A stretch of 64,000 bases of DNA from a virus: the IMG/VR virus record IMGVR_UViG_3300029554_000001; one strand, given 5' to 3'. Position numbers and translations under genes: made by a program. Position 1 is the first letter of the stretch. Every line of letters starts with the position of its first letter. The notes beneath the pieces were generated by a model. That model saw only the letters and a list, made by a program, of their open reading frames with translations. It was not told where the DNA came from and searched no databases. Below are positions 16,971-60,421 of this stretch, in pieces.

Positions 16971-16987
16971 AGAAAGGAGGATAATTA

Positions 16988-30209: not shown

Positions 30210-32798
30210 ATTGATGTAGATAGTGAGGCTTTAAAACGACCACTTATTTTCCAAAATATGCATGATTATTATGGAGATGAGAATGTTTTAAATACTCTTA
30301 CTTTAAAAACAGAGGGAACAAAATCTACAATTTTAGTGTGTGCTAAAGGGTTTGGAATAAATAATGATGATGCACAACATTTGGCAGATTTGGTTCCTTT
30401 TGAAAGAGGTTCAAACTGGTCATTAAAAGATTGTTTTTACGGGAATGAAGAAAATGGTAGAATGCCTGTAAAAGAATTTATTAATGAAGTAAATAAGTAC
30501 GAAGGGTTGAAAGATACTCTTTTTAAGATTGAAGGACTTATTTGTGGTAGGTCTATTCATGCTTCGGCATCTTATATTTTTGATGCTGGATATATTGTTC
30601 AAAATAGCAAAATGAGAGCGCCGAATGGTACAACTATCACTGCCTATAATATGGAAGATTCAGATTATATGGGTGGTTTGAAGATAGACACTTTGACTAT
30701 TGAAATGCTAGATAAGTTACATACAGCAATAGATTTGCTAATTGAAGCAAAAATAATTGAAGATAAAGGAAGTTATAAAGCTAATTATGATACTTATCTT
30801 CATCCTGATGTGCTTGATTATAATGATTATAAAATGTGGAATTTGTTAGACAAAAACCAAATTTTAGATGCATTTCAATTTGATAGTGCAATGGGACAAC
30901 AAGTTATTACAAAAACTCAACCTCGTTCTATGTTAGAACTTTCTACAGCTAATAGCTTAATGAGACTTATGGCGCAAGAAGGTGCAACAGAAGCCCCTAT
31001 GGATACTTATCGTCGTTATAAAAATAATATTCAATTATGGTATAACGAAATGAAAGAAAATAAATTATCCAACCATGAGCAAGAAATTATGAAGAAACAT
31101 TTAGGTAAACTTTATGGGGTTGCTGATACTCAGGAAAGTATTATGGAAATGAGTATGGACCCTGAAATAAGCGGGTTTGATGTAGTTCTTGCGAATAAGC
31201 TTAGAAAATCGGTGGCCAAAAAAAAGAAAGATTTGATTGCTGCTGTTCATGAAAAATTTTACAAAAAGGGCGCAGAATTAGGCACTTCAAAAGAACTGCT
31301 TAATTATGTTTGGGATGTACAAATTAAAAGACAGCTCGGATATTCTTTTTCAAAAAACCATTGTATGCCCTATACAGCCATTTGTCTTCAGTGTATGAAC
31401 ATTGTACAAAAATATGGGGCGTTATATTGGAATTGCGCTTGTTTAATTGTTAATAGTGGAAGTACAGATGAAGAAAATGTTGATAACAATAGTGGCGTTA
31501 ACTACGGTAGAATTGCTAAAGCTATGGGCAATATGATTAATGCTGGCATTAAAATTTCTTTACCTGATATTAATCGTGCTCGTTTTGGTTTTTACCCTGA
31601 CAAAGACAGCAATGAAATTATTTATGGCTTAAGACCTATTCAGGGATTAGGAGGGAAAATAGCTAAAGCAATCGTAGATAACAGACCTTATGCCTCAGTT
31701 GAAGATTTTTATTCTAAAATGCAAGAATTTAAAGAGTCTGCAAAAGAGAATAAGTTTGGCGATACGGCTATGATTTCTCTTATCAAAGCGCGGTGTTTTG
31801 ATAATCTTGAGAAAAAAGATAGAAGAGCAATTATGGAAGGCTTTATTAGGATTATTTCAAGTCCTGTTAAGTCTCTTAGTATGCCAAATATAGAAGATTT
31901 GGCAAATCTTGATTTATTAACTGAAAATCAAAAAAAGTTTGAATTAAGATTATATAGATTTAGAAACTATGTTTTCCAGAAAAAATTCTTTTATAAACAA
32001 ATAGGTAAAAGTGCAAGTACAGCTTATTATATCCTTGAAAATAAATTTGCATGGCCATTCTTTGAAAAATATTTCCTTAATGACATGATTGATAAAAAAG
32101 ATTACGACTGGAGCGATGAGGGACAAAGAGTTGTTAAAAGAGGTAGTTTAGACCGAGTTTTTAATAAACTCATGGCAGATTTTAAAGATGATGTCTTAAG
32201 TGACCCTAAAATGCTTGCGGCTGTAAATGAAGCAAAATTTAAGATGGTATGGGATGAAAAAGCGACGGGGAATCTGTCTAAATGGGAAATGGATTCTATG
32301 TGTTATTATTATCATTCTCATGAGTTGTCAAAAGTAAATAAAGAAAAATATAATATAATTAATTTTGAGGATTTGCCTCCTGATGGACCAGTTGTTCAAA
32401 CTTACCTGTATAGAGGACAAGAAAAGAGTCGTTTTGCATTAAGTAGGATTTGTGGAACTGTATTGGATAAAAATAAAAATAAGAATACTGTTGATTTATT
32501 AACTCCAACAGGGGTAGTAACTTTAAAATTTTATAAAGGTGCTTTTAATTTTTACGATAGGCAATTGTCGAAAGATAATGAAGATGGAACAAAGACCGTA
32601 ATTGAAAAGTCTTGGTTTTCCAGAGGTAATAAGTTATTGATTACTGGTTATAGACGTGATACACAATTTGTTCCTCGTAAATATTCTGACAGTTTATATA
32701 AACATTCTGTTCAATTAATTAAAAGTATTGATGATAATGGCGAGTTAGTTTTAACATCGGATAGAGCGGATAAAGAAAGGGAGGAAAATGAGTTCTGA
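30210..32798 (+). CDS. DNA polymerase III alpha-type replicase, exon 2
   Basis: Starts IDVDSEALKRP... in the frame of ORF-track 30258..32798. Long Pol III alpha-like body. No TAG. TGA stop overlapping the next gene. Confidence 0.8.
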   Translation: MDVDSEALKRPLIFQNMHDYYGDENVLNTLTLKTEGTKSTILVCAKGFGINNDDAQHLADLVPFERGSNWSLKDCFYGNEENGRMPVKEFINEVNKYEGLKDTLFKIEGLICGRSIHASASYIFDAGYIVQNSKMRAPNGTTITAYNMEDSDYMGGLKIDTLTIEMLDKLHTAIDLLIEAKIIEDKGSYKANYDTYLHPDVLDYNDYKMWNLLDKNQILDAFQFDSAMGQQVITKTQPRSMLELSTANSLMRLMAQEGATEAPMDTYRRYKNNIQLWYNEMKENKLSNHEQEIMKKHLGKLYGVADTQESIMEMSMDPEISGFDVVLANKLRKSVAKKKKDLIAAVHEKFYKKGAELGTSKELLNYVWDVQIKRQLGYSFSKNHCMPYTAICLQCMNIVQKYGALYWNCACLIVNSGSTDEENVDNNSGVNYGRIAKAMGNMINAGIKISLPDINRARFGFYPDKDSNEIIYGLRPIQGLGGKIAKAIVDNRPYASVEDFYSKMQEFKESAKENKFGDTAMISLIKARCFDNLEKKDRRAIMEGFIRIISSPVKSLSMPNIEDLANLDLLTENQKKFELRLYRFRNYVFQKKFFYKQIGKSASTAYYILENKFAWPFFEKYFLNDMIDKKDYDWSDEGQRVVKRGSLDRVFNKLMADFKDDVLSDPKMLAAVNEAKFKMVWDEKATGNLSKWEMDSMCYYYHSHELSKVNKEKYNIINFEDLPPDGPVVQTYLYRGQEKSRFALSRICGTVLDKNKNKNTVDLLTPTGVVTLKFYKGAFNFYDRQLSKDNEDGTKTVIEKSWFSRGNKLLITGYRRDTQFVPRKYSDSLYKHSVQLIKSIDDNGELVLTSDRADKEREENEF

Positions 32799-35253
32799 AT
32801 TCGTTGAAGAAAAATTCATAAAGATAAAAGCGTCTCATTCTAAGACCCTTTATCCGAGTGCTGGAATTGGGTCAGACGGTAAAAATTGGGGAATAGTTTC
32901 TTGGAATATTCTTGAGGTAGAACAAGGGACTCCTACCATGAGTGTTTATGGTGAAGTTACTTTTACGGGAGAATACACAGATGGAATTGACCCCAATTCT
33001 GCCTATGTGTTATTAGGCAAAGAGGTTGAGCATCCCAAATATGGTGTTCAATATCAATTAATTTATTATAATAAAGATATTGATTTTTCTAACCAGAAGA
33101 ATCAAAGAGCTTTTTTAAGAACTTTTTTATCAGAAGGTCAAATGGATGAGTTGTTTGCTGTATGCGATGACCCATTACAAGCTATTGCAGACCATGATAT
33201 AGAAACTTTAAAGAAAGCTAAAGGTATTGGAGATTATATTTCTAATTGTATTATTGAGCGTTTCGAAGCCAGTAAAGATATGTCTACTGTATATTTAGAG
33301 CTTGATAAGGTTGGTTTTTCTCCAAACTTTATTTCTAAACTAATTGAAAAATATAAAGCTCCACAAAAGGTAATTGATATTGTAAAAAACAATCCTTATC
33401 AGTTAGTAAAAGATATTAAAGGAGTAGGATTTTTTACTGCGGATAAAGTGGCTTTAAGGTCAGGTTATAAAACTTATGACACAAAGAGAATTAAATCTTA
33501 TATCTTATGGTATCTTGATGCCCAAGGAGAAGAAGGCCATTCTTGGGTGTCCGCTGGTGAATTAATGGGCTCGTTATATGAAGACCTTGGCGGAAAACAA
33601 AGTTTAATAGTAGAAGATGAAGATGGTAATCTTGTAAACAATGTTGGTAAAGCTATTAAAGAACTTCAAGATGAGGAGTTAATTCGTGTTGAAGAGGGCG
33701 ATACTAAATCAGGTCGAAGAGTTTATTTAATGAGCTTTTGGAATCTTGAAAAAGATATTGCTTATCATCTTAAAAGATTACTTCAAGGTAATAATTATTT
33801 TGTTGCTAATGATTTTGAAGAGAAAATAAAAAGAGCAGAAGAGAAACAAGGTTTTCAGTTTACTCAAGAGCAAATAGACGGAATTAAGCTGGGAATTGAA
33901 AAACAAGTTTGCGTAATTTCTGGTTTAGCTGGTTCTGGTAAAAGTTCGTTAGTTACAGGTATTTTATCTGTACTTGATGAATATACTTTTGCTCAATGTG
34001 CTTTAAGTGGTAAAGCGGCGGCAAGATTACAAGAAGTTACTGGCAAAGAAGGTTTTACTATTCACCGACTTCTTGGATATACTGGTGGTTGTGGTTTTTC
34101 TTATGGAGAAGATAATCCATTACCTTATGATATCATTATTTTAGATGAAGTTAGTATGGTGGGTGGAGAAATTTTTCTCGATTTAATTAGAGCAATTCCC
34201 ACAGGCAGTAAACTTTTAATGCTTGGTGATATGGGACAGCTTGAATCTATTGGTTCTCTTAATTTAGCTGCGGATATGATTAATAGCAAAGAAATTCCTA
34301 CTGTTGAACTTAAAGAAGTACATAGACAAGCAAAGGCTTCTGGTATTTTAACTACCGCTTATAATGTAAGAAATGGTATTCAATTATATCAAGATACTGA
34401 TTATGAAGGTGTTGAAATTCGCGGAGAACTGAAAGATATGGTACTTGATATTAGAAATGAAAAAGATGATGATAGAAAAGATACCATTGCTTATTTTGAA
34501 AAATATTTTAATAGCCCTCTTGTAAATGGTGACATTGAAAAAATTCAAATTATTTCTCCTGTGAAAGAACGTGGAGATGCTTGTGTTCACAATTTAAATC
34601 TTGATATTCAAAAATTAATTAATCCTGTTGATTTGAATGAATCTCGTCCAAGAATTTACGTTCAAAAGATGAAAGATGCTTCTGGAAATGACAGGTCTTT
34701 TTGGATTCAAGAAGGTGATAAAGTAATGTGTATTAAAAACAATTATAAAGTTTTTGATACAAGTGGAGCACAAACAGCTATGTATAATGGGTGGACTGGT
34801 GTAGTTACAAGTATTGATTATGAAAATGCCATCGTTGATTTCGATTTAGGAGATGCACCTATTATTTTAAAACACAAAGAAGTTAAGGAACATTTAATTC
34901 TAGGATATGCTTGTACTACTCATAAATATCAAGGTTCTGGTTGCCCTGTAATTATTGGAATAATAGATTATAGTACTCCTCCAATGATGCTTTGTCAGCA
35001 ACAGATTTACACTTTATTAACCAGAGCTAAGAAATTGTGTGTACTTGTAGCTCAAACTAAAGCCTTACGACGTTCTATTGATACAAATTTTGTTTCAACA
35101 AAAAGAACATTCCTACCTGAATTTTTGAAGTAGGAATACAGATAGCTTAGAGAATAGTATAATGTGCTTCATAGAAAAGAAGATGAAGAGCGTAGAACTT
35201 TAATTAGGCAACTAAAAGATTGGAAAGAAAAAGATGAAGTACAAGAGGAATAA
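32788..35253 (+). CDS. RecD/RecD2-like SF1 helicase with TAG-dependent C-terminal extension
   Basis: RBS AGGGAGG then ATG. Walker A GLAGSGKSS. Motifs IILDEVSMV, LGDMGQLESIG and TTHKYQGSGCPVII. The ORF-track end at 35133 is TAG; reading through 3 TAG gives 40 more codons to TAA 35251-35253. Confidence 0.75.
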
Positions 35254-35267
35254 TTTTTATTATCCTC

Positions 35268-35296
35268 TTGACAACTTCATTTGATTATGTTATTAT
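35268..35296 (+). promoter_or_regulatory. sigma70/sigmaA-type promoter
   Basis: TTGACA (35268-35273), 17 nt, TATTAT (35291-35296). Its -35 box overlaps the 3' arm of an imperfect hairpin (35243-35269). Confidence 0.5.
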
Positions 35297-35319
35297 ATGA
35301 ATGATTCAAAGGAGTAACT

Positions 35320-35766
35320 ATGAATCGAGAAGAACGTAGAGCGGTTGTAAAGAAGCTCACTAAAAAAGGTTTAACAAAAGAAAGCGCTATTACTTTTGTT
35401 AAAAGAATGGACAGTATTACCACCAATCCCATTACTGCATGGGAGGGTGAAAAAGTAACTTTAGATTATAATCGAATTATTACCTATCCAGATTGGAAAC
35501 AAATGAGAGAAGATTATAGAAATTGGGTTACTGAACACAAAAATGATATTTTTACAGTTGAGTTTGACTCTTTGAAAAAAGAAAGACAAACTGCTGATTA
35601 TAATAGCCTTGTTCAATTTGTAGAAGATGAAACTAAACCAAAATGGCTGTTTTGGGCAGGAGATTTAATTCCTGTTGAGGGACAAACAAGACCTGATACT
35701 GATAAAGAAAAGTTAGTAAAAGAATTCAACGAGAAGATTGATAGTATTCTATCTAAGATGGAATAA
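35320..35766 (+). CDS. hypothetical protein
   Basis: RBS AAAGGAG then ATG. 148 aa, no TAG, TAA stop. Confidence 0.65.
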   Translation: MNREERRAVVKKLTKKGLTKESAITFVKRMDSITTNPITAWEGEKVTLDYNRIITYPDWKQMREDYRNWVTEHKNDIFTVEFDSLKKERQTADYNSLVQFVEDETKPKWLFWAGDLIPVEGQTRPDTDKEKLVKEFNEKIDSILSKME

Positions 35767-35777
35767 GGAGGACAAAA

Positions 35778-36743
35778 ATGGAACATACGAATTTTATGAT
35801 GATGATTGGAGTTGTTGCAAGTGGTAAATCCACTCTTGCTCAAAATCTCAAAAATATGCTGACTAAAATGGGTCAGCCTACAATGATTGTTTCATCGGAT
35901 GAAATTCGTGAAACTGTTTTTGGAGATGTAAACGACCAGACTCATAATGACGAGGTTTTTAAGGAAGTTCGTCGCCGTATTAACAATTGCATTGATAAAA
36001 TGAATGTTATTGTTGATGCAACTAATATTAATGTTAAATCTCGTAAGAGCTTGTTGGATATTGTTCGCAATAAGGAGAATGTTACTAAAGTAGCTTATGT
36101 TATGACTACTCCCGTTGCTGTTTGTAAAAGACAGAATAAAGCGAGAACTCGTACAGTTCCCGAAGAAGTTATTGACAGACAGATTGGCAAGTTTGAAATT
36201 CCTTTTTATGAAGAAGGTTTTGATACAATTAATTTAATTGGTTGGAATTTTAATCAGTTTGAAGTAATTGTCCCTCAGTCTAATTGGACTACTGATGATG
36301 ATTATATTATGAGTTTGATGAAGGGCTTTGACCAGAAAACTTGTCATCATAAGTACACTTTAGATGAACATTGTAGAATTTGTGCCGAAGAAGTTGCTAA
36401 AAGAACTGATGATAAGATTCTTTATAGAGCTGCACAAATTCATGACTTAGGCAAGTTAACTACTGGACAGCCCAAGGAAGATGGTTCTGGAGATTATAGA
36501 TATTATAGTCATCATAATGTAGGAACGTATGACCTTTTAGCAAATCTTGATTGTATTGGATTTACTAACATGGACGATATCTTAAAATGTCTGTTTTATG
36601 TTAATTTTCATATGCTTCCATTCTTTCTTGAAACTGAAAAGTCTAAATCTAAATGGGAAAAGATTATGGGAAAAGAAAACCTTGATAAGCTTTTTTTGTT
36701 TAACGAATGCGATAAAATTGCAAGTGGGACTTCTGAAAAATAA
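35778..36743 (+). CDS. P-loop polynucleotide-kinase-like domain fused to an HD phosphohydrolase domain
   Basis: RBS AAGGAGG then ATG. Walker A GVVASGKST at the N-terminus. HD signature (HHKYTLDEH...AAQIHDLGK...YSHHN) in the C-terminal half. Confidence 0.7.
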   Translation: MEHTNFMMMIGVVASGKSTLAQNLKNMLTKMGQPTMIVSSDEIRETVFGDVNDQTHNDEVFKEVRRRINNCIDKMNVIVDATNINVKSRKSLLDIVRNKENVTKVAYVMTTPVAVCKRQNKARTRTVPEEVIDRQIGKFEIPFYEEGFDTINLIGWNFNQFEVIVPQSNWTTDDDYIMSLMKGFDQKTCHHKYTLDEHCRICAEEVAKRTDDKILYRAAQIHDLGKLTTGQPKEDGSGDYRYYSHHNVGTYDLLANLDCIGFTNMDDILKCLFYVNFHMLPFFLETEKSKSKWEKIMGKENLDKLFLFNECDKIASGTSEK

Positions 36744-36778
36744 TTCAGAAGATAAAAATTAGTAAAGGAGAGTTTAAG

Positions 36779-38137
36779 ATGAATTTTCATTTTAAGAAAG
36801 AGTTTCTTTGGCATCCTCTTTATGAATATGTTATGACTGTTAAAAGAAAGTATATTCAATCTTATACTCTCCTTAACAACGAACCTTGTCCTGAAAATTA
36901 CAATTTTAATGATTGGCTCGACAGAATTTTTGAGGCGTGGGAGAATATTACTCCTAAACTTAATGAAAAGTTGAGTAAGATTTTTGACCCTCTTCAGATT
37001 ACTTGTTATGACCATTATGTACTTTTTAAGTATAAAGGTTTTATTGAATTGTCTGATGATTATGATTTAAATTCTTTTTTTGAATTATATGATGGTCTTT
37101 ATAGGGAATGTCGTTCTTGTGTCTTTGATTTAAAGAATGACGAAATTGCTTTGGCTTCTTTGGCAAAGTTTAAGAATTATGGCGAGGATGATGGTGATTG
37201 GTCTCCTAAAAAAATTAGGTCTAAATATCATTTTGCTCATGCAGTTTTTATTACTAATAAACTTGATGGTTCTTATCAGCAATATAGATATATTGCAGAG
37301 GAAGACAGAATTTTAGGTTCTGGTTCTCAGGCATTAGACCCTGTAGAATCTTGGAGACTTGCGGCGGGTTATAAACTTTTATCTGAGGGACAAAAAGAAT
37401 TAATTAGGGATTACCCTGATTACACTTTTATTTTTGAATATATTTCTCCAAAAAATCCCATTGTTGTTAAGTATGATGAATCTCAAGAAGGATTGTATTT
37501 ACTTGCGGCAAGGGATGTTAAGGATGGCAAGGAAGTTTCTTTTGATATTCTTAGTGACATGGCTGAGGAATATGATTCTAAAATGACTCAATGGTATTAT
37601 AATGCTACTTTGTTTAGTGTTTTAGCCGATACCGATAATTATCTTTCTTCTGAAAAAGAAGGTTGGGTAGTTGATATGGTTGATGGATATAAAAATCATT
37701 TTAGATGCAAAATTAAAACATCAGATTATGTCTTGATACATAAAGCATTATCTAAAAATATATCTCCTAACGCAGTTATTAATGCTATTCATGAAGATAG
37801 ATTTGATGACTTTTTAGCAAAGTGTCCTGAAGCGTATAGAGAATTAATTATGCAGTATTATAATACTGTTCATGAATATCTTAATCTTTATAAAGAGCTT
37901 ATTGATAAAATTTTAATTAAAGGAAATGCAGAATGTGTAGATTTTTGGAATGATAAAAAAGAAGCAATGCTTTGGATGGATAAACTTCCCAAAGTGTTAA
38001 AGGGCAGAACAAAGACCAAATATCTTGGACAGGAAAATGATTTCTTGTTAAAGAGACAGTTTTGCTATAAATATTCTGAAATTACAAAAGCCCTACACAA
38101 TTTAAAGCGTTTTAAAAATTCTATGGTGGAAGGGTAA
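36779..38137 (+). CDS. ATP-dependent RNA ligase (Rnl-type nucleotidyltransferase)
   Basis: RBS AAAGGAG then ATG. Motif I KLDGS (ITNKLDGSYQQY), motif IV-like EKEGWVV, motif V-like RCKIKT. Immediately downstream of the kinase/HD gene. Confidence 0.7.
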   Translation: MNFHFKKEFLWHPLYEYVMTVKRKYIQSYTLLNNEPCPENYNFNDWLDRIFEAWENITPKLNEKLSKIFDPLQITCYDHYVLFKYKGFIELSDDYDLNSFFELYDGLYRECRSCVFDLKNDEIALASLAKFKNYGEDDGDWSPKKIRSKYHFAHAVFITNKLDGSYQQYRYIAEEDRILGSGSQALDPVESWRLAAGYKLLSEGQKELIRDYPDYTFIFEYISPKNPIVVKYDESQEGLYLLAARDVKDGKEVSFDILSDMAEEYDSKMTQWYYNATLFSVLADTDNYLSSEKEGWVVDMVDGYKNHFRCKIKTSDYVLIHKALSKNISPNAVINAIHEDRFDDFLAKCPEAYRELIMQYYNTVHEYLNLYKELIDKILIKGNAECVDFWNDKKEAMLWMDKLPKVLKGRTKTKYLGQENDFLLKRQFCYKYSEITKALHNLKRFKNSMVEG

Positions 38138-38155
38138 CTTTCCACCATTTTTATA
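38124..38155 (+). terminator. rho-independent terminator
   Basis: GGTGGAA...TTCCACC stem spanning the stop codon of the ligase gene, followed by ATTTTTAT. Confidence 0.6.
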
Positions 38156-38210
38156 TATTATACAATAAAACAGAAACAAATTAAAATTAAACAAAAAAGG
38201 ATTGACAAAT

Positions 38211-38684
38211 ATGGATGTAAAGATTAAATTGCTGTCTAAGACAGCTAAAATGCCTACTAAGGCGCACGAGACTGATGCTTGCTTCGACCTTTATGCTGAT
38301 TGTCCTGATGATAGTTATTATAGTTGGGATGTTCAGAAAGATGTTGCAGGAATCAAGATTCGTCCTCACGAAACGGTAAAGGTAAAGACTGGTATTGCAA
38401 CGGCAATTCCTGTTGGATATTGGGGTGCTGTCTTTGCTCGTAGTGGGTTGGCTACAAAGCAAAGTTTGCGTCCTGCAAATTGCGTTGGAGTAATTGATGC
38501 AGATTATCGTGGTGAATGGATTGTTGCTCTTCATAATGATAGTACTGAAACACAAATTATTAGACACGGAGATAGGATTGCTCAAGCTATGATTCTTCCT
38601 GTGCTTCCCACTACTTTTGAACAAGTAGAAGAACTTCCCGATACTGAGCGCGGCGCTGGCGGATTTGGAAGTTCTGGTAATTAA
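38211..38684 (+). CDS. dut: dUTP pyrophosphatase
   Basis: Classic dUTPase motifs: DACFDLYA, ARSGLA, GVIDADYRGEW, GDRIAQ and C-terminal RGAGGFGSSG. Confidence 0.9.
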   Translation: MDVKIKLLSKTAKMPTKAHETDACFDLYADCPDDSYYSWDVQKDVAGIKIRPHETVKVKTGIATAIPVGYWGAVFARSGLATKQSLRPANCVGVIDADYRGEWIVALHNDSTETQIIRHGDRIAQAMILPVLPTTFEQVEELPDTERGAGGFGSSGN

Positions 38685-38702
38685 AATTTAAAGGAGAAAG
38701 TT

Positions 38703-39146
38703 ATGTAGGATTTTTGGAAATTAGCCTTAGAAAATCTTTTGGCAGCTTTGGTGGGATTTTCTATTTTTGGCATGGCATATCTTTCTAATGTTAGTTTCTC
38801 TTTGTATTATAATATTAAAATTGCAGGAGAGACTTTTGAAAAACAAAGATTAATAAATAGCCTTTATAAAATTTTAGCTTTTGCGGGTGGTACAATGTTA
38901 CTTGTACTTTCTACCTCTTTAATTATTCCTTGGGCAAACAAAAACAATCTTCCTATTCCTGCTGAATATAGTACTGTTATTTCAACAGTGGCAACTTTAG
39001 GAGTATGTTTATCTGGTTCTTTGAAATATATTTTAGAAGCTTTTAATAAGATGAAGAAAATTCTGGCTATTAAAGATGAAAATAATACTATTGAAACAGC
39101 AAGAGCAAATGCTCTGAAATCTAATAAAGATGTAGAGGGAGAGTAA
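38703..39146 (+). CDS. three-TM membrane protein (holin-like, tentative) with TAG as codon 2
   Basis: RBS AAAGGAGAAAG then ATG TAG GAT... in the frame of ORF-track 38739..39146. Three hydrophobic helices and a charged C-terminus. Confidence 0.6.
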
Positions 39147-39148
39147 TT

Positions 39149-39691
39149 ATGGCTCTCCCTAATTATAATAAGCTCGTTATAGGAGATACTGAAACTACTG
39201 GATTTAAAGAAAATAGAATTGTTAGTATTGCAATTTTAGTGTATGAAAACGGCAAAAAAATTGCTGATAAATATATATTAGTAAATCCGTAGACCTAGAT
39301 TGAAAGTGGAGCATCTAAAGTTAATGGTATCACTTATGATACTATTAAAAATTGCCCTACATTTGACGAAGTTTGGGAAGAAATAAAAGATTATATGACA
39401 GATAGTGTTTGGATTTTTCATAATGCTAAATATGATGCTAACAAAGTAATCTATCCAGAATTAAAAAGATATCACATTCCAATTCCAAATCATGCTGTTT
39501 GTTGTACCTTAGAAAATGCGAAACGTTTAATTCCAAAAGCAGAAGTAGCTAATTATAAATTAGGGACTTTGCTTGAACATTTTGGCTATACTTTAGAAAA
39601 TGCTCATAGCGCAGATGCAGATACTTGGGGTTGTATGAAATTATATAATTAGTTAGTTAAATTATCTGATGGTAATTTAGATGTTACATAA
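39149..39691 (+). CDS. DnaQ/epsilon-like DEDDh 3'-5' exonuclease
   Basis: ExoI IGDTETTG, ExoII HNAKYD, ExoIII HSADADT. Two TAG at 39290 and 39296. The TAG at 39650 is followed by 12 codons and TAA 39689-39691. Confidence 0.8.
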
Positions 39692-39714
39692 AAGGACAAA
39701 AGGAGATTGATGTT

Positions 39715-39918
39715 ATGGTTGTTTTGTATACCACTAATTGCCCTCGTTGTATTGTTTTAGAAAAAAAACTTAAGCAAAAGGGAATTGAATTTGAAGCCAG
39801 AACTGATTTCGATATAAAGGAAATGATTAAAAAGGGTTTTGCTTCTGCTCCATTACTTGAAGTTGATGGAGAAATTATGGCTTTTAATGAAGCAAATCAA
39901 TGGATTAATAATAATTAA
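39715..39918 (+). CDS. glutaredoxin/NrdH-like redoxin
   Basis: 67 aa thioredoxin-fold protein with CPRC active site (VVLYTTNCPRCIVLEKKL). Directly upstream of nrdD. Confidence 0.8.
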   Translation: MVVLYTTNCPRCIVLEKKLKQKGIEFEARTDFDIKEMIKKGFASAPLLEVDGEIMAFNEANQWINNN

Positions 39919-39936
39919 AAAGGAGGAAAATTTTAT

Positions 39937-41865
39937 ATGGACATTTCACTTCGTTTAACAAAAGATTTTGAAAGATGCCTTGAAGATTTAAAAAAGAAAT
40001 ATGGTGAAGATTTCGAATATATTAATGGGGTTCATTCTAGTTAGTTAGATTTTTCAGAATTCTTAGATAAATTCGTAAATCAAAGCACAATGGCAGATGC
40101 TACTATCGACCCTAATGCAAATGCTAGCCATAGAGATATTCGTTCTTTTATGACTGAAAAGGGGAAGAGTGAAGATAAGCTTTTTGGTTTAAATAAAATT
40201 TTCCTTGAAATTAAGAAAAAATGGGGGCTGCGTACTGCTAAAGCTTGGTTAGAATAGGAATTTAGCAAGGGTTTTTATCTTAACGATTCTGCTACGGCAA
40301 GTTATTTTCCCTATTGCTGGGCAAACGATTTAACTCGTTTGGCAAGAGAGGGATTATTTTTCCTTGGAGGATATAATAATCAGCCTCCTAAACATTTGGA
40401 CACATATTTTGATGATGTTATTGAGTTTGTTTCGTTCCTCAGTAACCGTCAATCTCGGGCCGTTGGTCTCCCAAATGTAATTATTTGGGCTTATTATTTC
40501 TGGAAAATGGATATAAAGAATGGGCATTATTTTAAAGACCCAGATACTTATTTAAGACAATATTTTCAGAAATTTGTTTACAGATTAAATCAGCCATTCC
40601 TTAGAATTGACTAGTGCGCTTTTACAAATGTAAGTATTTTTGACCGTCCTTATCTTGAATCTTTGTTTGGTGGTTTGGAATTCCCAGATGGGTCTTTCGC
40701 TATTGACCAAATTGAAGAAATTATGAAGTGCCAGCGTTTATTTATGGATGTAGTAAGTGATATTCGCAGTGAAAACATGTTTACTTTCCCTGTTTTAACT
40801 TATTCTTTACTTTATAAAGATGGCAAATTTGAAGATGAAGAAACTGCTCGATGGGCTTGTTATCATAACATTAAGTGGTCTGATTCTAATTTCTTTGTAT
40901 CTGATAATGTTGGAGTACTTTCAAATTGTTGTCGTTTGCTTTCTGACACTCAAAAGCTTGATGCTTTTGTTAATTCTATTGGTGGTACAGCATTGTCTGT
41001 TGGGTCTTGTCGTGTGAGTACAATTAATCTTATGCGCATTGCATATGAGACTAAATTTAATAAAAAGAAATATATTGAACTTCTTAAAGACCGTGTACTT
41101 TTGGATTGTAAGGCATTAACTAGTATGCGTCACATTTTAGAGCGCAATATAGAAAAAGGTTTACTTCCTAACTATCAAGAAGGAGCAGTCGAACTTGACA
41201 AGCAATATTGTACTATTGGTATTCTTGGAATGTATGAAGTTATTGATTCTTTTGGATTAATTAATACTGACGAGTTTGGTAATAAATATTATACAGAAGA
41301 GGGATTGGAATTTGCTTGCCAGATTCTTGATACTATCAATGAAGTAAAAGATAATTTTGAATGTGATTTTTCTTTTAATGTTGAATCTATTCCTCGGGAA
41401 AATTGCGCTGGTGTAATTTGTACCGCAGATAATCTCTTGTTTGAGCAAGATAAATATTTTATTTACTCAAATTAGTGGGTCTCATTAACCGAACAATGCA
41501 CTATTAAAGAAAAGTGTCGTTTAGGAAGCGTACTTGATGAAAAATGTGGTGGCGGCTGCATTGCTCATATTGATATTGAAAATCGTTTTGCAACAAAAGA
41601 AAGTGCTTGGGATATGCTTAATTACATTGCTTCTAAAGGTGTAATTTATTTTGCGTTTACAACTAAAATTAATGTTTGTGAAGATAAACATTCTTTCATT
41701 GGAACTCAAACATGTCCTATTTGTGGAAAGCCTGTAGCAGACCAATATGCAAGAGTAGTAGGTTTTTATACTCCAGTAAGTAGTTATCAAAAGATTAGAA
41801 AAAAGGAATTTAATTTAAGACGTTGGTATAATGTTTTAGATGCAGATTCTATTATGAAAGGATAA
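39937..41865 (+). CDS. nrdD: anaerobic (class III) ribonucleoside-triphosphate reductase
   Basis: RBS AAAGGAGG then ATG. Four ORF-track pieces in one frame joined by 4 TAG (40042, 40255, 40612, 41473). LSNCCRL active-site region, C-terminal Zn site CPICGK and glycyl-radical motif RVVGFYTPVSSY. Confidence 0.85.
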
Positions 41866-42708: not shown

Positions 42709-43524
42709 ATGAATTTAGAAAAAGTTAACAACAGAGTTCATTCAGATTATGAATTTTTGAATGAACTTGGATATAATGTAGTCGGCGTATTTGTTTATGG
42801 TAGTAATAATTACGGAATGGCTACGGAACATTCTGATGTTGACACAAAAGCAATTGTGCTTCCTCATTTTGATGATATTGTTGATTCTAAAGATTGGGTT
42901 AGTAAAGAATATCATCGAGATGAAGATGGAGGAAAGCTTGAAGTTAAAGACATTCGCTTAATGTTTAATAGTTATTTAAAACAAAACATTAATTTTACAG
43001 AAACTTTATTTACTAAATATTTTGAGCTTAATCCTGAATATGCTGGACTGTGGTTGGGGGCTGTTGTTAAAAATAGAGAAGCTATTGCGCATTATTGTCC
43101 TCACAAAGCTGTATTAACAATGTATGGTAACATGAAAACAAAATACAAACAAATGTTTCATAGAGCCCCTCACAATGAATTTGATATTGATAATTATGGA
43201 TATGGGTTGAAGGATTTTCATCATATTGCAAGATTAGCAGATTTTATTAAAAGATATATAGCAGATGAACCATATGAAAAAATTTTAATTCCTAAAAATC
43301 CAGAATTATTAATTAGTTATAAAACCACTCCTATTCCAGTTGAAGATGCTAAAAGAATTGCAGAAAACTTAATTACCGAAGCAGAAGTTTTGGTAGATGA
43401 ATATGTAATGGATAAGCATTTTGAGACTAACAAAGAAGTAGAAGATGTTTTAAGAAATGTACAAAGGACAATGATAGCTAATTTTTTAAAGAAAGAGCTT
43501 TTAGAAAGTGAGACTAAATTATGA
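42709..43524 (+). CDS. Pol-beta-superfamily nucleotidyltransferase (RlaP-like, RNA-repair associated family)
   Basis: N-terminal motif VFVYGSNNYGMATEHSDVDTKAIV, typical of this nucleotidyltransferase family. No TAG. TGA stop. Confidence 0.65.
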   Translation: MNLEKVNNRVHSDYEFLNELGYNVVGVFVYGSNNYGMATEHSDVDTKAIVLPHFDDIVDSKDWVSKEYHRDEDGGKLEVKDIRLMFNSYLKQNINFTETLFTKYFELNPEYAGLWLGAVVKNREAIAHYCPHKAVLTMYGNMKTKYKQMFHRAPHNEFDIDNYGYGLKDFHHIARLADFIKRYIADEPYEKILIPKNPELLISYKTTPIPVEDAKRIAENLITEAEVLVDEYVMDKHFETNKEVEDVLRNVQRTMIANFLKKELLESETKL

Positions 43525-43597: not shown

Positions 43598-45586
43598 ATG
43601 GAGATTAATATGAATAATTACGAAAATATTGCACGCATTAAGGAATTAACGAGTTTGTTAAATAAGTATCGAGATAAATATTATAATTATAGCGAATCTC
43701 TGGTTTCTGATGCAGAATATGATAAGCTGTTTGACGAATTGCGTGAATTAGAAACAGAAGAGAATTTTATTCTTTCAAATTCTCCCACTCAAACTGTTGG
43801 CTATGAAACTGTTGATTCGCTAAAAAAGGTTAAACATGACCATTTAATGCTTTCACTTGATAAAACAAAAAGTTGTCAGGATTTGCTTAATTTTGCAGAA
43901 GATAGAGAAGTAGCTTTATCTATGAAGTTAGACGGTCTTACTATGTCTGTTAAATATGAAAATGGCAAGCTTGTTTCTGCTGAAACTCGTGGCAATGGTG
44001 TTGAAGGCACTGATGTTCTTAATAATGCCAAAGTTATGAAGAATCTTCCTTTAACTATTGATAGCGAAGAAACCCTTGTTATTGATGGTGAATGTATTAT
44101 TCTTAGAGAAGATTTTGAACGAATTAACGCAGAACTTCCTGATGGAGAGCAATATGCTACTCAGCGCAACCTTGCAAGTGGTAGTCTTTCTCTTTTGGAC
44201 AATAAAATTACGTCTCAGAGAGGTCTTCAATTTTGGGCTTGGAGTTTGATTGAGGGAACTACGGGTAGTTTTAGAAAAGATATGAATAAGCTTCAGTCTT
44301 TGGGATTTACTATTGTTCCCTGTATTTATTTCAATGGTGGTAATGTTGACCTTTATGGAATTGAAGATTTAACTATTAAATTGAAACAGACTGCTGATAA
44401 GAAAGGCATTCCTGTTGATGGCTGTGTTATTACTTATGATGACATTGCTTATGGTTTAAGTCTTGGTAACACTGGTCATCATTTCCGTAAGAGTTTAGCT
44501 TTTAAGTATGAAGATGAAACTGCTGGAACTATTCTTAGAGACATTGAATGGGCAGTTGGTAAAACTGGCGTAATTACTCCTACTGCTGTGTTTGAGTCTG
44601 TTATTCTTGATAATACAGAAGTAAGTCGCGCATCTGTTCATAATATTAGTATTATCAAGTCTCTTGGTTTGAGAAAAAATTGTACTGTTAAAGTTGCAAA
44701 AATGAACATGATTATTCCCCAGATTGTTTTTTGTAACAAAGATGGTGATGCAGATTTTGAAATTCCAAAGACTTGCCCGTGCTGTGGTAAGCCTACTACA
44801 ACTAAAATTTCTGAATCTGGTGCTGAGACTCTTTGGTGCGAAAATCCAGATTGCCCTGAAAAAAATTTAGCTAAGTTTGTTCAGTTTGTATCTAAGCCAG
44901 CAATGAATATTGATGGTTTAAGTGAAGCTACCCTTAAGAGATTTATTGATGCTGGGTATGTTAAGAAGTATGCAGACCTTTATCATCTTGATAAGTATAA
45001 AAACGAAATTATTGAGATGGATGGTTTTGGGGAAAAGTCTTATAGTAAGTTAATTGAATCTATTGAAAAGTCTCGCCATGTTAAACTTGAAAATCTTCTT
45101 GTCGCTTTAAGTATTCCCAATATTGGCAAGACAGCGGCAAAGGAAATCAGTAAACATTTTAATGGAGATTGGGTGGCTTTTGAAGAAGCTCTTGATTTTA
45201 ATAATTTTGATTTCTCTACTTTAGATGGCTTTGGTGAAACAATGTCTCAGGCTATGCATAACTGGTGGAATAGTGAAGATTTATTGTTTACAAATCTTAT
45301 TTTTGAATTAAATTTAGTTTGGGATAAGCCAGTACAGATTGCAACGAATGAGTTTATCAATGGTAAAACTTTCTGTGTTACAGGTGCTTTTAATACCATG
45401 AAACGTTCGGAAATCGAAAAGATTATTACTGATAATTGTGGTAAGTTAACTGGTTCTGTTTCTAAAAAAACTGATTATCTTTTAACGAACGAAGCTAATA
45501 GTGGTTCATCTAAAGCTAAGAAAGCCGCTGAATTAGGGACTTCTATTATGAACGAAGAAGAATTTTTGAAAAGGATTGGAAAATAA
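43598..45586 (+). CDS. ligA: NAD-dependent DNA ligase
   Basis: Adenylation motif KLDGLTMSVKYENGKLVSAETRGNGVEGTDV. Zn finger CPCCGKPT...CENPDCPEK. HhH region. C-terminal BRCT (GKTFCVTGAF). 662 aa, no TAG. Confidence 0.9.
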   Translation: MEINMNNYENIARIKELTSLLNKYRDKYYNYSESLVSDAEYDKLFDELRELETEENFILSNSPTQTVGYETVDSLKKVKHDHLMLSLDKTKSCQDLLNFAEDREVALSMKLDGLTMSVKYENGKLVSAETRGNGVEGTDVLNNAKVMKNLPLTIDSEETLVIDGECIILREDFERINAELPDGEQYATQRNLASGSLSLLDNKITSQRGLQFWAWSLIEGTTGSFRKDMNKLQSLGFTIVPCIYFNGGNVDLYGIEDLTIKLKQTADKKGIPVDGCVITYDDIAYGLSLGNTGHHFRKSLAFKYEDETAGTILRDIEWAVGKTGVITPTAVFESVILDNTEVSRASVHNISIIKSLGLRKNCTVKVAKMNMIIPQIVFCNKDGDADFEIPKTCPCCGKPTTTKISESGAETLWCENPDCPEKNLAKFVQFVSKPAMNIDGLSEATLKRFIDAGYVKKYADLYHLDKYKNEIIEMDGFGEKSYSKLIESIEKSRHVKLENLLVALSIPNIGKTAAKEISKHFNGDWVAFEEALDFNNFDFSTLDGFGETMSQAMHNWWNSEDLLFTNLIFELNLVWDKPVQIATNEFINGKTFCVTGAFNTMKRSEIEKIITDNCGKLTGSVSKKTDYLLTNEANSGSSKAKKAAELGTSIMNEEEFLKRIGK

Positions 45587-46716: not shown

Positions 46717-46982
46717 ATTTTCCAAAAAAGCAGCCTTTAGAATCTACTAAATGGCTAAAATATAAATTTAATAGAAAAGAAGATAATATTGAAGATGCTC
46801 AGACAAATTTGTTAAACTGGACAATTCTTAGTTATAATCCTGTTCAAAAAGATTATGTTTTAGCTGGTGTAATTACTAAAGTTACAGAAGATTATGTGGA
46901 ATTTTTAGGAGACCCTTCTGTTGTTAATACCAGATGGTTTCAGGAATCGTCTGTAGGGCATAGTTTGGAGTGTTTAAGTTAA
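46713..46982 (+). CDS. hypothetical protein
   Basis: ORF in a translationally coupled chain (ATGA overlap upstream, TAATG downstream). Confidence 0.5.
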   Translation: MNFPKKQPLESTKWLKYKFNRKEDNIEDAQTNLLNWTILSYNPVQKDYVLAGVITKVTEDYVEFLGDPSVVNTRWFQESSVGHSLECLS

Positions 46983-47593
46983 TGAATTATTATATTTCAG
47001 ATTTGCACTTTGGGCATAAAAACATTATTAATTTTGACCATCGCCCATATGATACAACAGAAGAAATGGAGCTTGGCTTAATTTCTCGTTGGAATAAACA
47101 AGTTTCAAATGCAGACCATGTATATGTACTTGGAGATTTTCTGTGGAAAGCAGGGTCAGATGAATGGATTCGTATTTTAAATAAGTTAAACGGTAATGTT
47201 CATTTAATTCAAGGCAATCATGACTGTAACCAATATTCTACAGGAGTTAGGAAAAAATTAGCTGAAATTTGTCATTATAAAGAAGTAACTGAGACAGTTG
47301 ATGGTAAACTTTATAGAGTAATTCTTTCTCATTTTGCAATTCTTTCATATTATGGGTCTTGTTATGATAATTGTTTCCATTTACATGGACATACTCATAC
47401 AACCAAAGAACAAGACTTGGTAGAAGATTTTGCTAAAATGGCAAAAGAAAAATTAAAAAATTCCAATGGGAATGAATATTTAAATAGAGCACAGATGATT
47501 AATGTTGGATGTATGATGCCTTATATGAATTATACTCCACAAACTTTTGAATATCTTTTGATGAAATATAAGAAGGGAGAAATAAAGGCGTAA
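46982..47593 (+). CDS. calcineurin-like metallophosphoesterase
   Basis: Motifs ISDLHFGH, VLGDF, GNHD and GHTH. Confidence 0.75.
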   Translation: MNYYISDLHFGHKNIINFDHRPYDTTEEMELGLISRWNKQVSNADHVYVLGDFLWKAGSDEWIRILNKLNGNVHLIQGNHDCNQYSTGVRKKLAEICHYKEVTETVDGKLYRVILSHFAILSYYGSCYDNCFHLHGHTHTTKEQDLVEDFAKMAKEKLKNSNGNEYLNRAQMINVGCMMPYMNYTPQTFEYLLMKYKKGEIKA

Positions 47594-55180: not shown

Positions 55181-56440
55181 ATGGAATATTGTAAATATCT
55201 TATTTTAGTAGACCCTAATAATAATGGGGTTGATTCAAATAAATTCTACAAAATGGCTGGAAATGGTGATGATACGTTTACTGTAGAATTTGGTCGTGTT
55301 GGTGCCACTCCTCAGACTAAAACTTATCCTATGTCTAAATGGAATTCTACTCTTGCCTCTAAGTTGAAGAAGGGATATGTTGACCGTTCTGATTTGATGC
55401 AGGAAGTTATTGCTGATTCCAAAATTGAGGATAAGTCTAATGGAGTAGATGAATTTAGTTTGGTTCAAAACCTATCTGTCCGAGAGATTGTTAAACGTCT
55501 TTGGGATTATGCTAATAAGACTATTCAATCTGCTTATTCTGTTCGTGCTGAAGCTGTTACTCAGGCTATGATTGATGCTGCTCAGGAAAAGATTGACTAT
55601 ATTGCAGCGAATTACAAAAACTGGTCTGTTGAGGAATTTAACAAGAATTTAAATGAGTTGTTCATTATTGTCCCTCGTAAGATGAAGCGTGTTTCTGACT
55701 GTCTTGTTTCTGATTCTTCTGAATACGACAAAAAGCTTTCTGAGGAACAAAGCTTGCTTGATACTATGGCTGGTCAGGTTTATAAGCCAAAGGCGAGAAT
55801 TGTTGATGCTGGTTCTGAAATTAAGGCTTCTGAAAGTATTTTACAGAAGATGGGTATTACCATGGAAGAAGCTACTCAGGAAGATATTGCTAAAATTAAA
55901 AAGGCAATGGGGGATTCTGCTGGAAAGTTTTACAAGGCTTGGCGTGTTACTAATCTTGAGACTGAAGAAAGATATCAGAAATTTACTTCAGAAAATAATA
56001 TTGGTAATGTAAAATTATTCTGCCATGGTAGCCGAAATCAGAATTGGTTTAACATTCTTAAGATGGGTTTAAAGATTCGCCCCGCAGGAGTTATTACAAC
56101 AGGTTTGATGTTTGGAAAGGGCGCCTATTTCTCGAATAGTGAGAAGTATCATGGAGGGGTAGCCAAATCTATTGGTTATACTTCTTTAGGTGGATATTGG
56201 ACTCGTGATTATCAGAATTGCGGCTTTATTGCTTTCTTTGATGTGGCTATTGGAGATAGTGTTGATGCCTATTCTTTTGATTCTAAGTATTATTCTTATA
56301 ATCTTGAGAGGCTAAAAAAGGACAATCCTAAAGCTTGGAGTTTGTGGGCTCATGGCAATACTTCTATGCTTCGCAACGATGAAATTATCGTTTACGATGA
56401 TAGACAAATGACTATTCGATATTTAGTGGAGATTAGATAA
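55181..56440 (+). CDS. WGR-domain poly(ADP-ribose)-polymerase-like ADP-ribosyltransferase
   Basis: N-terminal WGR-like segment (LILVDPNNNGVDSNKFYKM...FTVEFGRVGATPQTK). C-terminal PARP catalytic H-Y-E type motifs (LFCHGSRNQNWFNILKMGL, MFGKGAYFSN). No TAG. Confidence 0.75.
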   Translation: MEYCKYLILVDPNNNGVDSNKFYKMAGNGDDTFTVEFGRVGATPQTKTYPMSKWNSTLASKLKKGYVDRSDLMQEVIADSKIEDKSNGVDEFSLVQNLSVREIVKRLWDYANKTIQSAYSVRAEAVTQAMIDAAQEKIDYIAANYKNWSVEEFNKNLNELFIIVPRKMKRVSDCLVSDSSEYDKKLSEEQSLLDTMAGQVYKPKARIVDAGSEIKASESILQKMGITMEEATQEDIAKIKKAMGDSAGKFYKAWRVTNLETEERYQKFTSENNIGNVKLFCHGSRNQNWFNILKMGLKIRPAGVITTGLMFGKGAYFSNSEKYHGGVAKSIGYTSLGGYWTRDYQNCGFIAFFDVAIGDSVDAYSFDSKYYSYNLERLKKDNPKAWSLWAHGNTSMLRNDEIIVYDDRQMTIRYLVEIR

Positions 56441-57198: not shown

Positions 57199-57687
57199 AT
57201 GATTGGTGAAATGCAGACTGTTTCTAGCGTAACTTTTGGTATTCCTTCTGATTTTCCTTCTCTTGTAGACTCTGTTGTGGGTTCTCTTAAAAAGGGATAT
57301 AGAGATTATTGTTTTACAAATAAGCAACTAAAAGAAATTATTGAAAAATGCCACGAGGCAAATGTAAGTTTTGCTTATCGTAAGCAGTTAGATGAAGATT
57401 ACAAGATTGAATATATTGAACTTATTCCTTGTACTTTTTATTTCGCAGAAACAGTCGAGGAAAATAAAGTCGAAAACATTCAGGTAGCAATGGAAAATCT
57501 TCCTGTGGCATTAATTTTCTGTCCTAAAAATAATAAGACTGATATTACTATTGATGCTGATTATCAGGAAAAGAATGAAAAAAGGGCAAAGAGTTATAAG
57601 AAGCTTGCATATTTCGATGATGATGGTTGTCCAGTATATATTGAAGACCTTACGAGAATGAGAAAGGAAAAAGAAAATGGAGTATAA
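57199..57687 (+). CDS. hypothetical protein
   Basis: 162-aa ORF, no TAG. Overlaps the next start. Confidence 0.5.
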   Translation: MIGEMQTVSSVTFGIPSDFPSLVDSVVGSLKKGYRDYCFTNKQLKEIIEKCHEANVSFAYRKQLDEDYKIEYIELIPCTFYFAETVEENKVENIQVAMENLPVALIFCPKNNKTDITIDADYQEKNEKRAKSYKKLAYFDDDGCPVYIEDLTRMRKEKENGV

Positions 57688-60383: not shown

Positions 60384-60421
60384 TATTTTTTAAATTTGTT
60401 ACAAAAAGTGAGGAATTAATT

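Follow-up and report, generated by a model that had tools for sequence, protein, structure and literature searches.

Phage T4 mends breaks in tRNA anticodons with two enzymes, Pnkp (PseT) and Rnl1 (RnlA), which between them supply a 5'-kinase, a 3'-end phosphoesterase and a ligase of the Rnl1 family. The same three components are predicted in a phage from the human gut, represented by a 64,000-nucleotide (nt) stretch of the IMG/VR record IMGVR_UViG_3300029554_000001, which we call the window. Its gene Pnk-HD (35778-36743, plus strand; 321 amino acids (aa), with a TAA stop codon at 36741-36743) joins a P-loop polynucleotide-kinase-like domain to an HD domain, and the next gene downstream (36779-38137, plus strand; 452 aa, TAA stop) encodes an Rnl1-family ATP-dependent RNA ligase. 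An initial annotation, made from the sequence without database searches, had taken these two open reading frames (ORFs) for an RNA-repair cassette following the logic of the T4 pair. The ORFs lie where it placed them, and the T4 logic is upheld by a ligase closest to T4 Rnl1, a kinase closest to polynucleotide kinases and a near-obligatory linkage of Pnk-HD genes to ligase genes. Together with a small upstream gene, ORF148, they form a putative operon that probably encodes a complete pathway for healing and sealing RNA, with the reversal of tRNA-cleaving defences as its likely use.

The window ligase is homologous to T4 Rnl1 and the window kinase to T4 Pnk (1ly1/1ltq), the kinase being nearer to the bacterial clade of Clostridium thermocellum Pnk (CthPnk) than to T4 Pnk. 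Where T4 has an acyl-phosphatase of the DxDxT/HAD type, the window protein has a metal-dependent HD domain. Unlike in T4, the kinase and ligase genes adjoin in one operon, and the ligase is 78 aa longer than T4 Rnl1, with a conserved N-terminal extension. The C. thermocellum Pnkp/Hen1 system supplies the closest solved kinase domain (4gp6/4gp7) and has the heal-and-seal logic in common with the window cassette, but CthPnkp has a binuclear metallophosphoesterase, a fused ligase domain and a Hen1 methyltransferase partner, none of which occurs in the window operon.

An HD domain in the role of the phosphatase has precedents. According to PMC6097658, which describes the work of Munir & Shuman (2017), HD-Pnk of Runella slithyformis has an HD 2',3'-phosphoesterase at its N-terminus and a kinase for 5'-OH polynucleotides at its C-terminus, and its gene overlaps a ligase ORF; the 2',3'-phosphoesterase and 5'-kinase activities are biochemically proven. 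Judged from this description, Runella HD-Pnk resembles Pnk-HD in having HD and P-loop kinase in one polypeptide and an adjoining gene for an ATP-dependent ligase. The order is reversed, with HD N-terminal and kinase C-terminal in Runella, and kinase N-terminal (residues 5-150) and HD C-terminal (185-321) in the window. The window cassette also differs in its bona fide Rnl1-family partner, in having neither a Tpt1 nor a methyltransferase-HIT neighbour, and in being carried by a phage instead of a bacterial chromosome. The Runella enzyme reportedly needs Ni, Cu or Co and acts on both RNA and DNA ends.

Domain homology was compared with the HD-Pnk proteins of phages. In the family phrog_6931, the window HD domain matches positions 51-152 (E 2.6e-11) and the window kinase positions 184-339 (E 7e-27). 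A second phage HD-Pnk, F341_081 of a Campylobacter phage, has HD at 36-119 and kinase at 190-328, the order opposite to that in the window; it aligns with the window HD profile at an hhalign probability of 96% (E 2.9e-9), with the motifs HDLGK, a KxDG hairpin and HxNVG in common. An Rnl1 ligase is encoded 1.7 kb from F341_081, not immediately adjacent to it. Annotations in the phage HD-Pnk family read 'putative polynucleotide 5' kinase and 3' phosphatase' or 'polyA polymerase'. The order of the window protein is found instead in Tsamsa-like Bacillus siphoviruses and in Bacillus phage KLEB27-3, whose proteins are 27-32% identical to it over the full length and keep all catalytic residues. In the Tsamsa-like phage Chewbecca, gp137 ('polynucleotide kinase') lies beside gp136 ('tRNA ligase'), an Rnl1-family partner. 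The Tsamsa-like phages place the ligase before Pnk-HD, with a 4-nt overlap, and have Bacillus hosts as against the presumed gut clostridial host of the window phage; in KLEB27-3 ligase and Pnk-HD stand three genes apart.

A literature search returned no paper using the name 'Pnk-HD' or describing the biochemistry of this domain order. The replacement of DxDxT by HD is thus already known, from Runella HD-Pnk (2017) and from the Campylobacter phage HD-Pnk, and it is the domain order that differs. The window cassette is a domain-permuted, uncharacterised variant of a known heal-and-seal system.

Kinase and HD domains of Pnk-HD

The first domain (residues 1-165; 35778-36272, plus strand) is a predicted P-loop polynucleotide 5'-kinase. 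Residues 5-150 match Pfam AAA_33 (E 6e-21), the bacterial Pnkp model TIGR04075 (E 5e-19, over the kinase part only, profile positions 9-137 of 851) and the polynucleotide kinase family phrog_505 (E 6e-17); the PSTK family is matched as well. CthPnk is the closest kinase of solved structure, both for the single sequence (4gp6, E 3e-12) and for the family profile (4gp7, E 1.4e-26). An AlphaFold2 (AF2) model of the full-length protein is compact and two-domained (predicted local distance difference test (pLDDT) 93.9, predicted template modelling score (pTM) 0.92), and with it Foldseek returned PSTK, CthPnk 4gp6 (TM 0.74, root-mean-square deviation 2.1 A), mammalian PNKP, Pnkp1 and T4 Pnk. The domain groups with these enzymes and not with deoxynucleoside monophosphate (dNMP) or adenylate kinases. 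We rejected the latter reading, as the thymidylate-kinase match was marginal (Pfam E 0.09) and the acceptor-site residues are of the polynucleotide-kinase type.

A Walker A P-loop is present (G11-VVAS-G16-K17-S18-T19). In CthPnk, Lys21, Ser22, Asp38 and Arg41 are reported to be essential, with Thr80 and, in the lid, Arg120 and Arg123 making further contacts (PMC3902929). These seven align, respectively, with K17, S18, D41, R44, T82, R123 and R125 of Pnk-HD. Conservation was counted over 133 full-length cluster representatives that are 29-60% identical to the window Pnk-HD (median 37%): K17 and D41 are each kept in 130, R44 in 129, R123 in 128, T82 in 124 and R125 in 82. The Pnk domain would phosphorylate 5'-OH polynucleotide ends with NTP.

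The second domain (residues 172-321; 36291-36743, plus strand) is an HD domain and a predicted metal-dependent 2',3'-cyclic and 3'-phosphoesterase. The fusion proposed by the initial annotation is confirmed by family and structure matches and by a nearly invariant HD signature. This signature, within residues ~185-321, comprises H198, H222-D223, H245, H278 and D312, besides Q186, H191 and K226. H198, H222, D223, K226, H245 and H278 are invariant in all 133 representatives and D312 in 132. Conservation of the kinase residues and of the HD ligands across this set indicates that both active sites are under selection. The annotation was likewise right that no DxDxT phosphatase is present: searches of Pfam and NCBIfam found no HAD/DxDxT domain in Pnk-HD, and T4 Pnkp (1ltq) aligns over kinase residues 1-143 only. 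In presenting the exchange as a departure from the usual it overlooked the precedents in Runella and in Campylobacter and Bacillus phages.

The structure and profile comparison that had been suggested for the HD domain puts the HD domain of class II tRNA nucleotidyltransferases first by sequence. A full-length family profile matches that domain in the Aquifex enzyme (3wfo-3wfs) at E 6e-13, and a profile of the HD domain alone matches the same CC-adding enzyme at E 2e-8, the next sequence match being the oxygenase PhnZ at only ~0.1. Five motifs are common to Pnk-HD and 3wfo-3wfs: HHxYxLDxH, HDIGK, YxHxxVGA, HxxPFF and DxxASG. Since Foldseek with the full-length model returned mainly kinases, we made an HD-only AF2 model (pLDDT 93.9). 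Its best matches are all HD proteins (PhnZ, 3wfo-3wfs, TmpB, MIOX, PgpH; TMq 0.5-0.69), with PhnZ and 3wfr/3wfp at TMq 0.58-0.69. Class II nucleotidyltransferases, which include the CCA-adding enzyme of E. coli and the Aquifex CC-adding enzyme, are thus the closest solved relatives of the HD domain by sequence. Their HD domain is fused to a Pol-beta nucleotidyltransferase and that of the window to a kinase; in the Aquifex protein an insert separates the first motif block from the HD block, while in the window the two are contiguous.

We conclude from the sequence comparisons that the HD domain is specifically related to that of the class II tRNA nucleotidyltransferases. In E. coli, the HD domain of the CCA-adding enzyme clears tRNA ends of 2',3'-cyclic phosphates (Yakunin 2004, cited in PMC6961547). 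By homology to this domain and to HD-Pnk, the window HD domain would act on RNA ends bearing 2',3'-cyclic, 3'- or 2'-phosphates.

RNA ligase

The ligase has an N-terminal extension (residues 1-109), a nucleotidyltransferase domain (~110-320) and a C-terminal domain (321-452). It passes the gathering score of Pfam PF09511, RNA_lig_T4_1 (48.5 versus 28.3 bits, E 1.3e-12), over the entire profile (positions 1-227 of 227), and it matches phrog_562 at E 1.6e-33; tblastn recovers rnlA genes of T4-like phages. A search of the PDB with the single sequence gave nothing, and T4 Rnl1 was recovered by the family profile only. With that profile, built from 28 homologs, T4 Rnl1 is the best PDB match (9do4/2c5u/5tt6, E ~1e-13), and archaeal Rnl3-type ligases come next; the protein therefore falls with T4 RNA ligase 1 and apart from DNA ligases and capping enzymes.

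The three motifs by which an Rnl-type ligase had been recognised are in place (KLDGS at 161-165, EGWVV at 294-298 and KIKT at 311-314). Invariant in the 28 homologs are K161-x-D163-G164 of motif I, E220 of motif III, E294-G295 of motif IV and K311-x-K313 of motif V, which pair with KEDG, FEF, EGYV and KIK of T4 Rnl1. The protein is therefore a member of the Rnl1 family with all nucleotidyltransferase motifs intact, and ATP-dependent sealing of 3'-OH/5'-PO4 RNA ends is its predicted activity. Its score against TIGR02308, the T4 RnlA equivalog, is 56.2 bits where the cut-off is 242, which makes it a family member and not an ortholog-level match.

The profile alignment with T4 Rnl1 pairs query residues 110-380 with T4 residues 52-311. 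The 109-residue N-terminal extension is conserved, with a WHPLY motif. At the other end, the alignment reaches residue 311-331 of the 374 in T4 Rnl1, the start of the C-terminal domain, and leaves the last 70 residues unaligned. The C-terminal domain of T4 Rnl1 is said to confer tRNA specificity. The tail-fibre attachment role of T4 Rnl1 (gp63) was also considered, and nothing in the analysis bears on it.

Distribution of Pnk-HD and its linkage to RNA ligases

The exact Pnk-HD protein occurs on 41 contigs, and its cluster at 90% identity has 1,086 member sequences; the source names for the protein are 'predicted kinase' and 'hypothetical protein' only. There are 280 relatives in IMG/VR. An exhaustive search of 1.84 billion cluster representatives with the HD profile gave 805 proteins at E 1e-10 or better, and among the best 150 of these, 141 have the Pnk-HD order and nine are short fragments, the HD-Pnk order being absent. 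We note that the 90%-identity cluster also has 148-aa members (P0389, P0393, P0397, P0400) on contigs of up to 217 kb; these could come from alleles that have been truncated, or from gene prediction halted in some strains at an in-frame stop codon such as TAG.

Linkage was counted over 88 phage loci. Our first ligase profile missed the ligases in 53 of them, where Pfam showed either another ligase family or a divergent Rnl1, and the loci were recounted with mixed references. An RNA ligase gene is directly adjacent to Pnk-HD on the same strand in 84 of the 88 loci and lies within 5 kb in 87; the lone locus without one ends 160 nt upstream of the Pnk-HD gene.

The arrangement varies by clade. 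Pnk-HD followed by Rnl1 is found at 29 loci, which form the window's clade (59-100% identity), and this order is kept in metagenomic relatives with 50-59% identity, where the synteny runs DnaE, RecD2 helicase, small ORF, Pnk-HD, Rnl1, dUTPase, exonuclease, NrdD. Rnl1 followed by Pnk-HD, usually with overlapping stop and start codons, is found at eight loci (Tsamsa-like Bacillus phages and others). A ligase with a PHA02142-type OB fold and a PF09414 domain precedes Pnk-HD at 49 loci of a clade with 38-41% identity, including a contig of the isolate Clostridium rectalis, and one locus (L034) has a PF09414 ligase without the OB fold. With the healing enzyme constant, and the ligase family and gene order varying by clade, the pattern argues for functional coupling, and is strong contextual evidence for a heal-and-seal role.

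Some peculiar loci should be mentioned. Four of the OB-fold and PF09414 ligases (L035 3684-4988, L045 3689-5008, L060 3828-4991, L082 3665-4987) gave between them one faint tRNA_bind match. Two homologs with 31-33% identity to the window Pnk-HD, L090 (3992-7832) and L091 (3992-7924), are on contigs in Clostridium and 'Mollicutes' metagenome-assembled genome bins and have the order RNase H, Pnk-HD, two unknown ORFs, dNMP kinase, ATP-dependent DNA ligase (PF01068). Pnk-HD could serve DNA ends in that clade; alternatively, one of the unknown ORFs (277-304 aa) might be a ligase that escaped recognition. Mobile endonucleases often occur near the cassette: in L008, a 128-kb relative (470-4360, 9938-12921), the helicase has an intein with a LAGLIDADG endonuclease and an HNH endonuclease ORF splits NrdD, and in L006 the dUTPase region, which lies just downstream of the ligase, is broken up by HNH and LAGLIDADG ORFs.

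Operon structure

ORF148, Pnk-HD and Rnl1 form a putative three-gene operon between a promoter-like site and a terminator-like hairpin. The promoter-like site (35268-35296, plus strand) has TTGACA and TATTAT separated by 17 nt, with a TG extension, giving 11 of 12 consensus matches; it is intergenic, upstream of ORF148, and has the top score within 32500-40000, although promoter-like sites overall are at shuffle level (35 found versus 34.2 expected). A Shine-Dalgarno sequence precedes each of the three genes, being AAAGGAG for ORF148 and again for the ligase (at 36765), and the gap from Pnk-HD to the ligase is 35 nt. The hairpin (38123-38158, plus strand) resembles an intrinsic terminator, with an 11-bp stem, a GTAA loop and a T-rich tail (ATGGTGGAAGG-GTAA-CTTTCCACCAT followed by TTTTATATAT), and overlaps the ligase stop codon; seven terminator-like sites were found in the region, against 2.7 expected from shuffles. 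All the promoter, Shine-Dalgarno and terminator calls are consensus matches, not proof of function.

The first gene, ORF148 (35320-35766, plus strand; 148 aa), had no match in Pfam, PHROG or PADLOC. A jackhmmer search over the loci placed it directly upstream of Pnk-HD in 29 of 29 loci of the window's clade and 4.4 kb upstream in L033, and found it absent from the other Pnk-HD clades. It appears to share a transcript with Pnk-HD and the ligase, and may be a clade-specific passenger or accessory, which could aid the repair enzymes or be unrelated to them. Upstream of the operon is a RecD2-like helicase ORF, which starts at 32788 and stops at a TAG codon at 35131-35133; with read-through of this and two more in-frame TAGs it becomes ~40 codons longer and ends at TAA (35251-35253), still upstream of the promoter-like site. 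A minus-strand ORF (36608-37015, 135 aa) over the junction of Pnk-HD and the ligase was treated as spurious, as it opposes all recognised genes and the GC skew is uniformly positive.

Proposed function and alternatives

In the mechanism that we propose, a ribonuclease would cut RNA, most plausibly tRNA, leaving 2',3'-cyclic-phosphate and 5'-OH ends. The C-terminal HD domain, with a bound transition metal or metal pair, would hydrolyse the cyclic or 3'-phosphate to a 3'-OH, and the N-terminal P-loop kinase would move the gamma-phosphate of an NTP onto the 5'-OH, with D41 as general base and R44 holding the acceptor strand. The ligase would adenylylate itself on K161, pass the AMP to the 5'-phosphate and seal the break. 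That the three activities are divided in this way, with the HD domain making the 3'-OH, the kinase phosphorylating the 5'-OH and the Rnl1 ligase sealing by way of K161-AMP, we consider likely. The likely use would be the reversal of tRNA-cleaving defences of the host or of a competitor, as with T4 Pnkp and Rnl1. Whether tRNA is the substrate, and the undoing of a host tRNA nuclease the purpose, is more evenly balanced; this part of the proposal draws on the Rnl1 family of the ligase, the CCA-enzyme type of the HD domain, PSTK-like features of the kinase and the tRNA-related genes of the phage.

Several observations weigh against the proposal as a whole. The kinase resembles the tRNA kinase PSTK about as closely as it does CthPnk, so that the fold alone leaves room for a tRNA-specific kinase. 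The window Pnk-HD scores below the cut-off of Pfam HD (PF01966; 17.7-19.4 versus 22 bits), a model that 18 of 20 Pnk-HD homologs match at E 0.01 or better (best E 5.9e-8), and the Foldseek E-values for the HD domain are weak (~3e-3), with the oxygenase PhnZ as the top match. The full-length homologs L090 and L091 have no recognisable RNA ligase nearby, and an ATP-dependent DNA ligase lies 1.8 kb downstream. The linkage counts overstate independence, since near-duplicates from a single IMG dataset make up many of the 88 loci; true replication lies in the three clades and the three arrangements. Finally, the ligase beside Runella HD-Pnk did not seal standard 3'-OH/5'-PO4 substrates, according to PMC6097658, and adjacency is therefore no guarantee of canonical chemistry.

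Three other explanations were weighed. RNA healing and sealing might be a housekeeping matter, serving the upkeep of the phage's own tRNAs and other RNAs, the treatment of cyclic-phosphate 3' ends, or the joining of processed or intron-containing RNAs. The HD domain is most like that of the CCA/CC-adding enzymes, which in E. coli repair the 3' ends of tRNA; the window has four tRNAs and a Thg1-like tRNA 5'-end repair enzyme; the phage needs tRNA-dependent read-through of TAG; and the genes around the operon are early ones for replication and nucleotide metabolism. Yet the best-studied relatives, T4 Rnl1 with Pnkp, serve counter-defence, none of the four window tRNA genes shows an intron or split, and the swapping of ligase families between clades suits generic break repair better than dedicated processing, so we regard a housekeeping role as improbable. 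Even less probable, in our estimation, is that Pnk-HD mainly heals DNA ends in replication or recombination and that the ligase acts on DNA or on DNA/RNA hybrids. The operon does lie between a helicase and a dUTPase inside the replication module, and the ligase closest to Pnk-HD in L090 and L091 is of the ATP-dependent DNA type, with RNase H adjoining; but in 87 of the 88 loci the partner belongs to an RNA-ligase family (PF09511 or PF09414) and not to the DNA ligases, T4 Rnl1 is the closest solved relative of the window ligase, and the window has an NAD-dependent DNA ligase of its own elsewhere.

We find it very hard to credit that the HD domain hydrolyses small nucleotides (2',3'-cyclic nucleotide monophosphates, signalling) or is an oxygenase of the PhnZ/MIOX type, with the P-loop domain a kinase of small molecules or a PSTK-like kinase of aminoacyl-tRNA. 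PhnZ tops the Foldseek matches for the HD domain, which also list TmpB and MIOX, 3 of 20 homologs have MIOX matches in Pfam, and PSTK is among the top kinase matches. By sequence, however, the PhnZ match is only ~0.1 as against 2e-8 for the tRNA nucleotidyltransferase HD, PADLOC gave no relevant match, and such activities offer no rationale for fusion to a kinase with acceptor-strand Asp, Arg and Thr residues or for the near-obligatory linkage to an RNA ligase. A reading of Pnk-HD as part of a defence system was rejected, PADLOC having given only weak, generic P-loop and HD matches. Each of the three alternatives fits the ligase linkage less well than the proposed heal-and-seal pathway.

Genome setting and apparent TAG recoding

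The window has a G+C content of ~32%; its recognisable genes are all on the plus strand, and the GC skew is positive throughout. Over the kinase gene it is 100% identical to the 123,382-nt contig USDL01000001.1 (L089), binned under 'uncultured Clostridium sp. UMGS1616' and also present in IMG/VR as IMGVR_UViG_3300045988_166421 (L010). The replication genes resemble those of SPbeta-like Bacillus phages, with a YorL-type polymerase at 44% identity. Megablast of 35000-38700 against 50,697 phage records gave no matches, so the region has no close cultured relative at the DNA level among them. The cassette lies among early replication and nucleotide-metabolism genes, with the helicase on one side and a dUTPase on the other. 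An NAD-dependent DNA ligase is encoded separately (43598-45586), so that DNA sealing is covered apart from the cassette.

The phage appears to reassign TAG. An NrdD-like gene (39937-41865) forms a single frame containing four TAGs; read through, it yields a product of 642 aa that shares 48% identity over 632 residues with an uninterrupted homolog, in which Gln occupies the two TAG positions that fall within conserved motifs. An RNase T-like exonuclease gene (39149-39652) has two in-frame TAGs. In all, TAG is the apparent 'end' of 18 of the 62 long plus-strand ORFs, most of them within the first 18 kb (97-17959), where many listed ORFs are therefore fragments of longer genes. Reassignment of TAG (code 15) is documented in gut phages (PMC9523058, PMC10607447), and Gln at the TAG positions is consistent with this code. 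ORF148, Pnk-HD and the ligase gene each stop at TAA and are free of in-frame TAGs, which leaves the gene limits in the operon unaffected.

Four tRNA genes (Leu-TAA, Pro-TGG, Arg-CCT and Gly-TCC) lie at 60132-63429, with no suppressor tRNA among them. Of the functions elsewhere in the window that the initial annotation had connected with the cassette, the Thg1-like enzyme of the tRNA-His guanylyltransferase family (57677-58510, plus strand; Pfam E 3e-28, phrog_4717 E 5e-77) is verified, as is a metallophosphoesterase, whose ORF runs from 46970 to 47593. The Thg1-like gene is 1.6 kb upstream of the tRNA cluster and is possibly a second tRNA-repair function of the phage. The protein at 42709-43524, described as RlaP-like, is a nucleotidyltransferase of a generic kind (phrog_388, E 3e-12; NTP_transf_2, E 7e-4, below threshold) with no match to PF10127 and no solved relative found. 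Nucleotidyltransferase genes near the Pnk-HD and ligase pair were also seen in the Tsamsa-like phages and KLEB27-3 (L001 2356-2958; L003 13396-14154). Also in the window are a gene with an N-terminal WGR domain and a C-terminal poly(ADP-ribose) polymerase catalytic domain (55181-56440; PARP match at E 1.4e-18) and, after it, an HNH/AP2 homing-endonuclease-like ORF (56600-57193).

Significance

Since RNA heal-and-seal in phages and the swap of HD for HAD are already established, the advance is incremental. If the predicted activities are true, Pnk-HD would be the third bifunctional RNA end-healing architecture, after the T4-type kinase-HAD and the Runella-type HD-kinase. It could rank among the commonest such architectures in phages, with at least 141 clusters at 50% identity and 280 IMG/VR loci, and the window protein has more than 1,000 near-identical copies in gut metagenomes. 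A constant healer with interchangeable ligase families provides a natural experiment on the assembly of repair modules.

Perhaps, although we think this rather unlikely, large Bacillota phages of gut and soil use Pnk-HD as a standard, exchangeable module for healing tRNA ends, with an HD domain recruited from the lineage of CCA-adding enzymes and a ligase chosen by the damage that the host inflicts. In this TAG-recoded phage the module would then belong, with the Thg1-like enzyme and the tRNA genes, to a toolkit protecting tRNAs, including any suppressor tRNA needed for late genes, and RNA repair would be linked to alternative genetic coding. The predicted activities, if true, would point to a wide occurrence of tRNA- or RNA-cleaving defences in gut Clostridia, which have received little study, and would provide a function for proteins that are currently annotated as 'predicted kinase', 'AAA family ATPase' or 'hypothetical protein'.

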